A DNA stretch of 64,000 nucleotides from Escherichia coli (GTDB taxonomy: Bacteria > Pseudomonadota > Gammaproteobacteria > Enterobacterales > Enterobacteriaceae): NCBI RefSeq assembly GCF_003019035.1, contig NZ_CP027447.1. One strand, 5' to 3'. Positions 40,737 through 55,861 of this stretch are shown one piece after another (the stretch's first letter is position 1; every line of letters begins with the position of its first letter). The notes beneath the pieces are model-generated. The model did no database searches, was not told the origin of the DNA, and saw only the letters and a program-made list of their open reading frames with translations. The position numbers and the translations under genes were made by a program.

Positions 40737-40886
40737 GTGAGGGTTAGGGAGAGGTTTCCCCCTCCCCCTGGTGTTCTTAGTAAGCCTGGAAGCTAATCAC
40801 TAAGAGTATCACCAGTATGATGACGTGCTTCATCATAACCCTTTCCTTATTAAAAGCCCTCTTCTCCGGGAGAGGGTTTCCCGTTT
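40737..40886 (+). ncRNA. sibA: Sib antisense sRNA (type I antitoxin), copy 1; ends approximate
   Basis: -35 ttgaca (40703-40708), 17-bp spacer, -10 taattt (40726-40731); intrinsic terminator gccctcttctccgggagagggtttcccgtttc ending ~40886; fully antisense to ibs ORF. Confidence 0.6.
40777..40836 (-). CDS. ibsA: Type I toxin IbsA-like, 19 aa (MMKHVIILVILLVISFQAY)
   Basis: Reverse-complement translation; SD aaggaaag upstream; differs from remembered K-12 IbsA by one residue (P17Q). Confidence 0.8.
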   Translation of the reverse strand: MMKHVIILVILLVISFQAY

Positions 40887-41071
40887 CAGCGTCCCGCTGA
40901 AATCGTCGGCTTACCTCCTTTCGCCCTGAATGCAGTCTATCGCTAACGCGTGAACAAAATAGTTTCCTCTGTGATTATTCCGTAACGACTCGCAAAGAAT
41001 ATTTGCTGGCAGGATCGCAGACTACAAAGCCTGCGGATTGACAATCTTATCGTGAAGGCATAATTTCAGGA

Positions 41072-41214
41072 GTGAGGGTAGAGCGGGGTTTCCCCCGCCC
41101 TGGTAGTCTTAGTAAGCGGGGAAGCTTATGACTAAGAGCACCACGATGATGAGTATCTTCATCATGACCCTTTCCTTATTTATGGCCCCTTCCTCGGGAG
41201 GGGCTTTCCCGTTT
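41072..41214 (+). ncRNA. sibB: Sib antisense sRNA, copy 2; ends approximate
   Basis: -35 ttgaca 41038-41043, -10 taattt 41061-41066; terminator hairpin ggcccctcctcgggaggggc + ttcccgtttc (41184-41214). Confidence 0.6.
41109..41165 (-). CDS. ibsB: Type I toxin IbsB-like, 18 aa (MMKILIIVVLLVISFPAY)
   Basis: Reverse-complement translation with SD; hydrophobic Ibs-family peptide. Confidence 0.8.
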   Translation of the reverse strand: MMKILIIVVLLVISFPAY

Positions 41215-41399
41215 CAGCGTCCCGCTGAAATCGTCGGCTTACCTCCTTCTGTCCTGTATGCAGTCTATCGCTGACTTGCGGATAAAATAGTTTCCAATGT
41301 GATTATTGCGTAACGTCTCGCAAAGAATATTTGCTGGCAGGATCGCAGACTGCAAAGCCTGCAGATTGACAATATTATCGTGAAGGCATACTTTCAGGA

Positions 41400-41543
41400 G
41401 TGAGGGTAGAGCGGGGTTTCCCCCGCCCTGGTAGTCTTAGTAAGCCGGGAAGCTTATGACTAAGAGCACCACGATGATGATCCACTTCATCATGACCCTT
41501 TCCTTATTTAAGGCCCCTTCCTCGGGAGGGGCTTTCCCGTTTC
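41400..41543 (+). ncRNA. Sib antisense sRNA, copy 3; ends approximate
   Basis: -35 ttgaca 41366-41371, -10 tacttt 41389-41394; terminator hairpin 41512-41543. Confidence 0.55.
41437..41493 (-). CDS. Type I toxin Ibs-family, third copy, 18 aa (MMKWIIIVVLLVISFPAY)
   Basis: Reverse-complement translation; same frame/SD as copy 2 but with Trp at position 4. Confidence 0.7.
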   Translation of the reverse strand: MMKWIIIVVLLVISFPAY

Positions 41544-41700
41544 AGCGTCCCGCTGAAATCGTCGGCCTACCTCCTTTTGCCCTGAATGCAGTCTATCGCT
41601 AACGCGTAGATAAAATAGTTTCCTGTGTTATTACTGGATGCGTGCTCGCAAATGTGCCCGCCATTCAGACGATTCCCGATAGTGTTTCATAATTCCTCCA

Positions 41701-52754: not shown

Positions 52755-52765
52755 TATTTTTACCT

Positions 52766-52795
52766 GCCGGAGAAGGCATTCACGCCGCATCCGGC
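52766..52795. repeat. REP element (single unit)
   Basis: gccggagaaggcattcacgccgcatccggc. Confidence 0.6.
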
Positions 52796-52933
52796 AACAT
52801 TATCCCATGCATTGTCGGCTATCTGACATTATCTCTCCGCCCTGGCAAGCACCTGAAAATCGCTCATACTTTAATCGGCAAACAGTCCTTTTAGATGCTG
52901 TTTTCGATACGCAATTTCAATCAAGGAGTCATT

Positions 52934-53273: not shown

Positions 53274-53305
53274 GCCGGGCGTGGGTTGTTGGCGTCCGGC
53301 TTTAT
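53274..53305 (+). terminator. Rho-independent terminator of yegP
   Basis: GC-rich hairpin gccgggcgtgggttgttggcgtccggc followed by tttat. Confidence 0.55.
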
Positions 53306-53519
53306 ATCAAAACAACTCTTAGTTATTGATAATTAAGATTAACCTCCGCCATTAAAATAGTGGGCACTGACGAGCACTCGTTGTGCTTTCTTTGTTTACC
53401 ATCCCATACTTATCTTCCTGAACATGTTCATATGCCAAAATATCTTCTAATACTTTCGTGACGCTATCCGGTTTATGAAATACACTGATGTAAGATTTTT
53501 ACTTACAGGCGGGTGTAAA

Positions 53520-53771
53520 ATGGCCAGAACGATGACGGTTGATCTCGGCGATGAGTTGCGTGAATTTATCGAGTCCTTAATTGAATCCGGCGACTATCGC
53601 ACCCAAAGCGAAGTGATCCGTGAGTCGCTGCGCTTACTTCGAGAAAAGCAAGCAGAGTCTCGCCTGCAAGCGTTACGTGACATGCTCGCTGAAGGGTTGA
53701 GTAGTGGTGAAGCTCAGCCGTGGGAAAAGGACGCGTTTTTACGGAAGGTGAAAGCAGGGATAAGGAAATAA
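53520..53771 (+). CDS. parD: Type II antitoxin ParD (ribbon-helix-helix)
   Basis: 83-aa product MARTMTVDLGDELREFIESLIESGDYRTQSEVIRESLRLLREK… characteristic ParD N-terminus; stop overlaps downstream toxin start region. Confidence 0.8.
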   Translation: MARTMTVDLGDELREFIESLIESGDYRTQSEVIRESLRLLREKQAESRLQALRDMLAEGLSSGEAQPWEKDAFLRKVKAGIRK

Positions 53772-53772
53772 T

Positions 53773-54069
53773 GTGCGTACTATAAAACTCATGCCAAAAG
53801 CCAATGAGGATTTAGAAGGCATCTGGTATTACAGCTATCACCATTTCGGCGAACCACAAGCCGACAGATATGTGGAACATCTTTCAGACGTTCTCCAGAT
53901 TCTGAGTAACAATAATATAGGTACGCCCAGACCTGAATTAGGCGAAGGTATTTTTGTTCTTCCTTTTGAACGCCACGTAATTTATTTCCTGCAATCACCA
54001 GAGGAAATTATCGTCATTCGTATCCTTAACCAAAACCAGTACGCCTCCAGACATTTACACTGGAGCTAA
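53773..54069 (+). CDS. parE: Type II toxin ParE (RelE/ParE superfamily); GTG start
   Basis: 98-aa ORF …ANEDLEGIWYYSYHHFGEPQADRYVEHL…HVIYFLQSPEEIIVIRILNQNQ…; starts 2 nt after parD stop. Confidence 0.8.
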   Translation: MRTIKLMPKANEDLEGIWYYSYHHFGEPQADRYVEHLSDVLQILSNNNIGTPRPELGEGIFVLPFERHVIYFLQSPEEIIVIRILNQNQYASRHLHWS

Positions 54070-54171
54070 ACCCGCCGATTGCGCTACAATGCCCGCCCTT
54101 AAAGTGGGGGCACTCCCCTAACCGCTTCATCAGGTGAAGCGGATCTGACCTGTCATCAGAACGAGAGAATT

Positions 54172-55533
54172 ATGTTTAAACCGGAACTCCTTTCCCCGGC
54201 GGGAACGCTGAAAAATATGCGTTACGCTTTCGCTTATGGCGCAGATGCTGTTTATGCGGGCCAGCCGCGTTACTCCCTGCGTGTGCGCAACAACGAATTC
54301 AACCACGAAAATCTCCAGCTCGGCATCAATGAAGCCCACGCGCTGGGGAAAAAGTTTTATGTCGTGGTCAACATTGCACCGCACAACGCCAAGCTGAAAA
54401 CCTTTATCCGTGACCTGAAACCGGTGGTGGAGATGGGGCCGGATGCGCTGATTATGTCCGATCCAGGGCTGATTATGCTGGTGCGCGAGCACTTCCCTGA
54501 AATGCCGATCCACCTCTCGGTGCAGGCTAACGCCGTGAACTGGGCGACGGTGAAATTCTGGCAGCAAATGGGACTGACCCGCGTGATCCTCTCTCGCGAG
54601 CTGTCGCTGGAAGAGATTGAAGAGATCCGTAATCAGGTGCCGGGTATGGAGATCGAGATCTTCGTTCACGGTGCGCTGTGCATGGCCTACTCCGGTCGCT
54701 GCCTGCTCTCTGGCTATATCAACAAGCGCGACCCGAACCAGGGCACCTGCACCAACGCCTGCCGCTGGGAGTACAACGTCCAGGAAGGGAAAGAAGATGA
54801 CGTTGGCAACATCGTGCACAAGTACGAGCCGATTCCGGTGCAAAATGTTGAGCCGACGCTGGGCATCGGCGCGCCAACCGACAAAGTGTTTATGATCGAA
54901 GAAGCTCAGCGTCCGGGCGAGTATATGACTGCGTTTGAAGATGAGCACGGCACTTACATCATGAACTCGAAAGATCTGCGCGCTATCGCCCACGTTGAAC
55001 GCCTGACCAAAATGGGCGTGCATTCGCTGAAAATCGAAGGTCGTACAAAATCTTTCTACTATTGCGCACGCACCGCGCAGGTTTACCGTAAAGCTATCGA
55101 TGACGCAGCTGCGGGAAAACCATTCGATACCAGCCTGCTGGAAACTCTGGAAGGTCTGGCGCATCGTGGCTATACCGAAGGTTTCCTGCGTCGTCATACT
55201 CACGACGATTATCAGAACTACGAATACGGTTATTCAGTTTCTGACCGCCAGCAGTTTGTTGGTGAGTTTACCGGTGAGCGCAAGGGCGACCTCGCGGCGG
55301 TAGCGGTGAAAAATAAATTCTCCGTTGGCGACAGCCTTGAGCTGATGACGCCGCAAGGGAACATTAACTTTACCCTTGAGCATATGGAAAACGCCAAAGG
55401 TGAAGCTATGCCGGTCGCACCAGGCGATGGTTATACTGTGTGGATCCCGGTGCCGCAGGATCTTGAGCTAAATTACGCGCTGCTGATGCGTAATTTCTCC
55501 GGGGAAACCACGCGTAACCCCCACGGTAAGTGA
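54172..55533 (+). CDS. yegQ: Peptidase-U32-family protein YegQ (TrhP, implicated in tRNA ho5U synthesis)
   Basis: 453-aa ORF MFKPELLSPAGTLKNMRYAFAYGADAVYAG…. Confidence 0.92.
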   Translation: MFKPELLSPAGTLKNMRYAFAYGADAVYAGQPRYSLRVRNNEFNHENLQLGINEAHALGKKFYVVVNIAPHNAKLKTFIRDLKPVVEMGPDALIMSDPGLIMLVREHFPEMPIHLSVQANAVNWATVKFWQQMGLTRVILSRELSLEEIEEIRNQVPGMEIEIFVHGALCMAYSGRCLLSGYINKRDPNQGTCTNACRWEYNVQEGKEDDVGNIVHKYEPIPVQNVEPTLGIGAPTDKVFMIEEAQRPGEYMTAFEDEHGTYIMNSKDLRAIAHVERLTKMGVHSLKIEGRTKSFYYCARTAQVYRKAIDDAAAGKPFDTSLLETLEGLAHRGYTEGFLRRHTHDDYQNYEYGYSVSDRQQFVGEFTGERKGDLAAVAVKNKFSVGDSLELMTPQGNINFTLEHMENAKGEAMPVAPGDGYTVWIPVPQDLELNYALLMRNFSGETTRNPHGK

Positions 55534-55861
55534 TTCATTTCGATTATTTTTCCCGGATGGAAAATTCTTAGAAACCGATCACATACAGCTGCATTTATTA
55601 AGGTTATCATCCGTTTCGCTGAAAAACATAACCCATAAAATGCTAGCTGTACCAGGAACCACCTCCTTAGCCTGTGTAATCTCCCTTACACGGGCTTATT
55701 TTTTATACATAAGCCGTATCCTGGTAACCGTCTTCCATTGACCACATCGATAGAATCTCCCCTCATAGCACGATGCCTTTCACTTATTGGCATCGTGCTC
55801 GCACAGGTTCCGGTTACGCACAGCCAGAACGCGCATGTTTGACGCTTACCAAAAAATATTC

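Follow-up and report, generated by a model that had tools for sequence, protein, structure and literature searches.

The perfect 8-bp inverted repeat located between parE and yegQ in Escherichia coli is, with little doubt, a native and transcribed RNA stem-loop, in which selection keeps the pairing and not the sequence across Enterobacterales. The fuller reading proposed here is that this stem-loop, named H2, is the middle one of the native 75-nt 5′ UTR of yegQ (now trhP) and the scaffold helix of a putative translational operator, whose recognition element would be the adjacent hairpin H3, a tRNA mimic; this statement, taken as a whole, is given a probability of about 0.45. On its own, H2 is an ordinary conserved leader stem-loop, and the element owes its interest to the fixed partnership of H2 with what looks like a mimic of an anticodon arm in the leader of a gene for tRNA modification, a partnership that seems not to have been described.

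The window (the whole stretch of 64,000 nucleotides of E. coli DNA that was analysed) contains baeS-baeR-yegP, parD and parE, yegQ and the sRNA gene cyaR. The features discussed below are the following:

53301..54080, + strand: parDE cassette, with parD at 53520-53771 and parE at 53773-54069; junctions taken from the K-12 alignment; given as context, outside the element
54085..54098, + strand: yegQ/trhP core promoter, with the -10 TACAAT at 54085-54090 and the GC-rich discriminator GCCCGCCC at 54091-54098; nearly invariant in 80 Enterobacteriaceae loci
54097, + strand: yegQ transcription start site (TSS), C54097, 7 nt past the -10; carried over from mapping in K-12, which lacks parDE
54105..54120, + strand: leader hairpin H1, UGGGGG-CACU-CCCCUA, from MFE folding
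54122..54142, + strand: leader hairpin H2, CCGCUUCA-UCAGG-UGAAGCGG, +26 to +46 of the mRNA
54144..54160, + strand: leader hairpin H3, UCUGA-CCUGUCA-UCAGA, with a 5-bp stem and a 7-nt loop
54161..54174, + strand: ribosome-binding region and AUG, ACGAGAGAAUU, with an SD-like GAGAG at 54163-54167; unpaired in the MFE fold
54172..55533, + strand: yegQ/trhP CDS, an open reading frame with Pfam Peptidase_U32 (1e-88) and U32_C; RefSeq names

The native yegQ leader and the parDE insertion

The first-pass annotation had described a perfect 8-bp inverted repeat at 54122-54142, and both the sequence, CCGCTTCA-TCAGG-TGAAGCGG, and the coordinates proved correct, with the arms ccgcttca (54122-54129) and tgaagcgg (54135-54142) enclosing tcagg (54130-54134). 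The distances estimated in it, about 50 bp past the parE stop and about 30 bp before the yegQ start, were measured as 52 nt from the end of the stop codon (54069) and 29 nt to the ATG at 54172, respectively, and the lack of a U-tract that it reported was also found, with no T run 3′ of the repeat and an empty terminator scan at this place. When folded with RNAfold, H2 forms 9 bp closed by a 3-nt loop through an extra U.G pair, at about -12 kcal/mol. Such a repeat is not significant alone, since 19 perfect 8-bp inverted repeats with loops of 3-8 nt were counted in the window against 7.1 +/- 3.3 in dinucleotide shuffles; additionally, the 109-nt region around it folded no better than its shuffles (z = -0.99). 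Despite this chance level, the repeat is judged to be real because it is conserved, with covariation, across 90 loci.

No Rfam family was found to match the leader: the sole hit, PhotoRC-I, scored 12.8 bits where the gathering score is 45, and was attributed to chance. The H2/H3 element does not behave as a REP/BIME or another dispersed repeat, occurring at a median of one place per E. coli genome, and a search for a second copy of the motif in E. coli found none. Elsewhere in the window, a sub-threshold Rfam match to naRNA4 (52765-52805, 26.4 bits, with 59.5 as the gathering score) lies in the baeR-yegP spacer and may be of REP type, and cyaR (Rfam RF00112, 100.7 bits) is found at 55616-55701; as in K-12, this gene follows yegQ at a distance of 83 nt. 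An 8-bp inverted repeat with a 3-nt loop (TTTCAGCG) was also observed in three identical copies, at 40884-40902, 41212-41230 and 41540-41558, exactly 328 bp apart, which shows that this part of the window holds a tandem repeat with a unit of about 328 bp.

In K-12, the yegQ TSS was mapped at 2163617, that is, the CDS start at 2163692 minus 75 (Kim et al. 2012, PMC3415461, supplementary file 2), and the -50 to +1 sequence reported for this gene ends in ...TACAATGCCCGCC (PMC3415461). Because this published TSS maps to 54097, upstream of H2, the hairpin is transcribed, and the 5′ UTR of yegQ is 75 nt long, with H2 at +26 to +46 by the K-12 mapping. A TSS downstream of the repeat, named in the first-pass annotation as an outcome that would speak against its significance, is therefore not the case. 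In the MFE fold from +1, H1, H2 and H3 follow one another in series with single-nucleotide spacers and are succeeded by the unpaired ACGAGAGAAUU-AUG, in which ACGAGA is nearly invariant. H1 shows partial covariation (GGGG/CCCC versus GAGGA/UCCUC); it is present in Enterobacteriaceae and absent from most other families of the order. A leader peptide was considered and rejected: the GUG-initiated 5-codon ORF lying in the E. coli H1 has no SD and is not conserved in Klebsiella and other genera.

Upstream of this leader, parD and parE were identified by Pfam (ParD_antitoxin, 4e-19; ParE_toxin, 2e-13) within an insert of 780 bp with 43% GC, compared with 52% for the window, which replaces 21 bp of the K-12 yegP-yegQ spacer (GCTTTACCAGAGCCCCCCACA). 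The sequence common to K-12 resumes at 54081 (GCGCTACAAT...), 41 bp upstream of H2. By megablast, the segment 53200-54300 was found whole in 1843 of 5426 complete E. coli genomes, with just both ends matching elsewhere, and in K-12 and 3580 of 5423 E. coli genomes parDE is absent, yet the hairpin is unchanged; by alignment, H2 is identical in K-12 MG1655 and in two further insert-free E. coli. Direct or inverted repeats flanking the insert were looked for, and none was found.

These results refute the earlier suggestion that the repeat is a scar marking the boundary of the parDE insertion; the comparison with strains lacking parDE, which had been proposed as the check, places the hairpin in the native yegQ leader and not in the insert. 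The proximity of parE would favor two related readings, namely that the insertion left behind a scar or attachment site, or that the repeat is a palindromic DNA operator bound by ParD/ParE. Nevertheless, the probability of such a reading is negligible, given that the identical hairpin exists in the absence of parDE and is also present in 80 other Enterobacteriaceae species, that the junction falls at 54080/54081 whereas the hairpin starts at 54122, that the insert has no flanking repeats, and that known ParD operators are located upstream of parD, not downstream of parE. The hairpin is thus older than the parDE insertion and forms part of the core genome rather than of the toxin-antitoxin cassette. 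This settles the annotation question, and it also reveals that the cassette displaced the native trhP -35 in about a third of E. coli.

Regarding this promoter, a -35 TTTACY placed 17 bp upstream of the -10 is found in insert-free genomes and is conserved across other genera. The native K-12 version, TTTACC (17 bp from TACAAT), sat in the 21 bp replaced by parDE; in the window, the nearest equivalent is a TTTACA that the final codons of parE provide at 25 bp from the -10. With the native -35 replaced and no terminator predicted between parE and yegQ, trhP may be transcribed differently in the roughly one third of E. coli carrying parDE, perhaps together with parDE. Across Enterobacteriaceae, the 8-nt GC-rich discriminator GCCCGCCC (54091-54098), which separates the -10 from the TSS, hardly varies. 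It recalls the rRNA and tRNA promoters that are under stringent control, a hint that trhP may respond to ppGpp or to growth rate. The site immediately 5′ of the yegQ promoter is a hot spot for insertions: an IS3 is found there in BKQWHE (L003) (cf. PMC7400221), and in ATCC 25922 (L002, 1350-1655) an island with a PcfJ-domain gene ends in the last 30 bp of parE plus CCGCCGATT.

Pairing of H2 kept across Enterobacterales

The conservation of the leader was evaluated in 80 yegQ loci from different Enterobacteriaceae species and in ten further loci from Erwiniaceae, Pectobacteriaceae, Yersiniaceae, Morganellaceae, Budviciaceae and Sodalis. A hairpin in the place of H2, with folding energies from -4 to -25 kcal/mol, was present in 90 of 91 Enterobacterales yegQ loci, so that a lack of conservation in other genomes, the other outcome considered adverse in the first-pass annotation, was not observed. 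All loci but one share a common plan, consisting of a GC-rich hairpin in the H2 place, the sequence CUGA-CYUGNNN-UCAGA and an AUG 11-17 nt further on, which in the Enterobacteriaceae loci is preceded by the -35 TTTACY, a 17-bp spacer, the -10 TACAAT and the GC-rich discriminator.

Within this plan, H2 occurs in 69 distinct sequences, such as CCGCCUUA/UGAGGCGG, CCGUCCCA/UGGGACGG, UCGCCGCA/UGCGGCGA and CACCAAGCC/GGCUUGGUG, and compensatory changes, affecting both sides, were found in all 8 of its pairs. In a MAFFT alignment of 70 distinct leaders, made from sequence only, 87.9% of the H2 cells were paired, and the covariation score of H2 was 0.171 compared with 0.104 +/- 0.006 after shuffling (reached in 0 of 500 shuffles) and at most 0.113 for slid partners. 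In the covariance-model (CM) alignment, which leans to the model structure and comprised 76 distinct leaders including those of distant families, the paired cells amounted to 92.5% and the score to 0.250, against 0.097 for shuffled alignments (again 0 of 500 reaching it) and at most 0.082 for slid partners. G.U pairs accounted for 49 of 573 pairs in H2, and RNAalifold predicted five H2 pairs together with all of H3.

Because the pairing is kept while the sequence is free and G.U is tolerated, H2 is read as an RNA of the + strand and not as a DNA palindrome. The protein operator proposed among the functions of the repeat in the first-pass annotation is not supported by the 69 versions of the stem with their G.U pairs, and the conserved half-sites expected of a palindromic DNA operator among orthologous loci are not found in H2.

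Some individual loci are of interest in their own right. In Cedecea sulfonylureivorans (L082, 1281-1477), a 165-bp insertion lies between promoter/H1 and H3; the 27-32 nt direct repeat that flanks it duplicates the whole of H2, and the insertion has a terminator-like hairpin of its own at 1404-1439. In Erwinia sp. (L086, 330-403), a strong H2-like hairpin, AAGGCCGCAA/UGCGGCCUU, is followed by an H3 reduced to ...AUGUCAGAUUGAGA, the only such locus in 91. Likewise, in the one ortholog from outside the order (L102, 63% identity), a hairpin is present and H3 is absent. As these two loci keep a hairpin without H3, the function of H2 may not depend on its neighbor.

H3 and the tRNA-Thr(UGU) anticodon arm

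While variation is seen at synonymous CDS positions and on either flank, H3 remains constant: of its five pairs, four show no change among 76 distinct leaders, and its stem CUGA/UCAG, the same in 90 loci, is accompanied by a loop of the form CYUGNNN. The linker between H2 and H3 measures 0-2 nt in 88 of 90 loci, belonging to six families, and the distance from the end of H3 to the AUG is 11 nt in E. coli and 11-17 nt across the 90 loci, with GAGAG, a weak SD-like sequence, in between. TrhP is a prephenate-dependent tRNA U34 hydroxylase of the peptidase U32 family (Sakai et al. 2019, PMC6599085). Because yegQ encodes this enzyme, H3 was compared with the anticodon arms of U34-G35 tRNAs, the comparison covering the four such tRNAs of E. 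coli K-12.

The anticodon stem-loop of thrU tRNA-Thr(UGU) is ACUGA-CUUGUAA-UCAGU, and the E. coli H3 is identical to it at 13 of 17 positions, with the same CUGA/UCAG stem core and 5 of 7 loop positions shared. Over the 17-mer, the number of identical positions rises to 14 in Pectobacterium, Limnobaculum and Sodalis; in the first two of these genera, H3 is CUGA-CUUGUGA-UCAG, with a loop agreeing at 6 of 7 positions. In Yersinia and Morganella, the H3 loop CUUGAAC is instead comparable to the CUUGAAA of tRNA-Ser(UGA), and in Musicola it is CCUGCGA (UGC, as in Ala). Consequently, the loop position equivalent to 36 is U, A or C, giving UGU, UGA or UGC, all of them anticodons of cmo5U tRNAs, and no change is seen at the equivalents of U34 and G35. 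The (m)cmo5U tRNAs include Thr4, Ser1, Ala1 and Pro3 (PMC6599085).

When the thrU 15-mer was searched with at most 2 mismatches, H3 was the sole match in the window, with 0.07 matches expected per 128 kb scanned, and an analytic estimate placed the chance of such a resemblance at about 2e-4 per tRNA for a hairpin of 5 bp and 7 nt. The mimic is imperfect, as H3 of Enterobacteriaceae has C at the equivalent of U33 and mostly C at the equivalent of purine 37. A search with the covariance model R1 found no match near trhO, cmoA/B or cmoM. A regular-expression search yielded one weak H3-like 17-mer, TCGGGCCTGAAATCAGA (L100, 3694-3710; NC_000913.3 about 1950693-1950709), some 139 nt upstream of yecD, which retains 4 of 5 stem pairs and whose last 12 nt equal the Buttiauxella H3 variant CCTGAAATCAGA. 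This match may be due to chance; it lies upstream of yecD-yecE-yecN-cmoA-cmoB, a cluster with the next two enzymes of the cmo5U pathway. A kissing or pseudoknot interaction of the two loops, CAGG in H2 and CCUG in H3, was rejected, since it fits E. coli but its complementarity is kept in only 30 of 90 loci.

From this arrangement, a mechanism can be proposed in which TrhP would control both the translation and, through translation-coupled Rho termination, the mRNA level of its own gene, by binding the H3 mimic, with H2 as a scaffold imitating the limb formed by the D-arm and the anticodon-arm; this is a possible autoregulation that we put forward only tentatively. H3 would be the recognition element, imitating almost as a copy the anticodon arm of a TrhP substrate, tRNA-Thr(UGU). 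H2 would not be recognized itself but would serve as a rigid scaffold helix abutting H3, on which it may stack across the linker of 0-2 nt, holding the weak 5-bp H3 in register and insulating it from the variable sequence upstream. The order hairpin, one nucleotide, anticodon-like arm would reproduce the topology of D-arm, N26 and anticodon arm in a tRNA. Free TrhP, or another reader of this anticodon arm, would bind H2-H3 and block 30S binding, and the blocked initiation would lower translation and expose the untranslated mRNA to Rho. Unmodified substrate tRNAs would compete for the protein and relieve the repression, so that the expression of trhP would follow how much substrate tRNA is left unmodified.

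It has been reported that yegQ is upregulated more than 30-fold in the Rho N340S mutant (Chhakchhuak & Sen, PMC9160355), a rise that fits a leader with limiting and regulated translation initiation. Apart from the imperfect mimicry and the two loci without H3, two further features argue against the operator model. The size of H2 is not that of a tRNA limb, as it has 8-9 bp and a loop of 3-5 nt while a D stem has 4 bp and a large loop, and the invariant TCTGA-N7-TCAGA would equally fit the DNA site of a dimeric protein or an sRNA target.

Alternative readings and known systems

In the first-pass annotation, the hairpin was also suggested to be an attenuator for yegQ. The part of this claim that stands is that H2 is a native element of the transcribed leader; it is not a switch between terminator and antiterminator, there being neither a U-tract nor a conserved alternative pairing. 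A GC-rich stem-loop in a leader, downstream of parE, does look like a transcriptional attenuator or terminator for yegQ or parE, but the stem is followed by AUCUGACC and the terminator scan is negative, and in K-12 H2 lies downstream of the yegQ promoter with no upstream gene to terminate. A conserved antiterminator pairing is, moreover, impossible, because the H2 arms vary while the region downstream is invariant, which makes this reading very improbable. No yegQ 3′ end is listed in those supplements of PMC7815308 that were searched. Greater weight is due to the reading of H2, with H1, as a generic hairpin that guards the mRNA against 5′-end-dependent decay or its ribosome-binding site against mispairing, without a trans factor and with the tRNA likeness of H3 either coincidental or serving another purpose. 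A structure that is kept while its sequence is free corresponds to a purely structural element; in Pectobacteriaceae and Yersinia, no hairpin other than H2 separates the -10 from H3, and H2 is near the predicted 5′ end; the Erwinia locus and the outgroup retain the hairpin without H3; and stabilizing 5′ hairpins are well known, as in ompA. This reading is plausible for H2, yet we consider it rather unlikely, as it leaves unexplained the near-constant H2-H3 spacing as well as the invariance of H3 and its match to the thrU anticodon arm, and as the E. coli H2 starts at +26 and is not 5′-terminal.

Somewhat less probable again is that the leader is the target of another regulator, with H2 as an accessory: an sRNA or protein acting on the invariant UCUGACCUGUCAUCAGAACGAGA, a dimer forming a roadblock at TCTGA-N7-TCAGA, or Rho-dependent attenuation. 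The nearly invariant arms of H3 would also suit an operator bound by a protein or a site of base-pairing, the GC-rich discriminator points to additional promoter-level control, and yegQ, besides its strong response to the Rho mutant, has an elemental pause sequence (PMC9160355). On the other hand, the conserved half of the loop, CYUG, is asymmetric, unlike a symmetric DNA operator, and the Rfam search gave no match for the leader, nor was a second copy of the motif seen in E. coli or near trhO, cmoA/B and cmoM. Among specific regulators, the neighboring sRNA CyaR was discarded, its complementarity to the leader being no better than that of shuffled sequences (duplex of -28.7 kcal/mol against a shuffled mean of -29.2), as was CsrA, since the GGA in H2 loops is not conserved.

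The tRNA-mimic operator, in which H2 would support H3, is the reading with the widest implications. To our knowledge, the control of tRNA-modification enzyme levels in bacteria is largely unknown, and TrhP begins the (m)cmo5U34 pathway, which expands wobble decoding. If the proposal is true, the leader would represent an undescribed cis-regulatory RNA motif conserved across Enterobacterales and, as far as we found, the first operator of the tRNA-mimic type for an enzyme that modifies tRNA in bacteria, coupling the enzyme level to the amount of unmodified tRNA and extending the thrS paradigm from synthetases to modification enzymes. In full-text searches of the literature, no description was found of trhP regulating itself, nor of a tRNA mimic serving a modification enzyme.

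Several known systems can be compared with this leader. The 5′ hairpins of ompA are stabilizing 5′-UTR stem-loops, and H2, taken alone, resembles them in being a stable 5′-UTR hairpin conserved in structure rather than in sequence; in E. coli, however, H2 is preceded by H1 instead of being 5′-terminal, and it is locked beside an invariant H3, which would be needless for a pure stabilizer. The ErmC methyltransferase and ribosomal proteins repress their own translation via an mRNA mimic of their natural RNA target, and they share with trhP the combination of an RNA-binding or RNA-modifying protein and a leader imitating its substrate; their leaders mimic rRNA sites, whereas the putative mimic of trhP is of a tRNA anticodon arm. 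In yeast, HisRS and ThrRS bind anticodon-like elements in mRNA (PMC6542539, PMC9956033). These cases have in common with the trhP proposal an mRNA element resembling an anticodon stem-loop and translational control by a tRNA-binding enzyme, and differ from it in involving eukaryotic synthetases and elements that are not adjacent to an SD.

The closest comparison is with the thrS operator of E. coli, in which ThrRS autoregulation occurs via anticodon-arm mimicry and domain 2 adjoins the SD. The two hallmarks of this type of operator, resemblance to an anticodon arm and adjacency to the SD/AUG, are both seen in H3, and the resemblance is lacking in H2; H2-H3 is accordingly regarded as a candidate member of the class, on resemblance and position only, and is not filed as a proven one. 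In both leaders, a stem-loop like the anticodon arm of the partner tRNA lies directly 5′ of the SD and AUG of the gene for a protein that binds this arm, and H3 ends at -12 from the AUG, much like thrS domain 2. A competition between tRNA and mRNA for the protein is likewise predicted for trhP by analogy with thrS. The two systems differ in that the protein is a tRNA-modifying U34 hydroxylase in one case and a synthetase in the other, and in that the trhP leader has one anticodon-like hairpin where thrS has two (domains 2 and 4). Additionally, the helix adjacent to the mimic in trhP, H2, is not anticodon-like, H3 of Enterobacteriaceae deviates at the equivalents of positions 33 and 37, and binding and repression at the trhP leader are predictions made from the sequence. 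What the two leaders would share is thus the placing of an anticodon-arm mimic next to the start codon of the gene whose product handles that arm.
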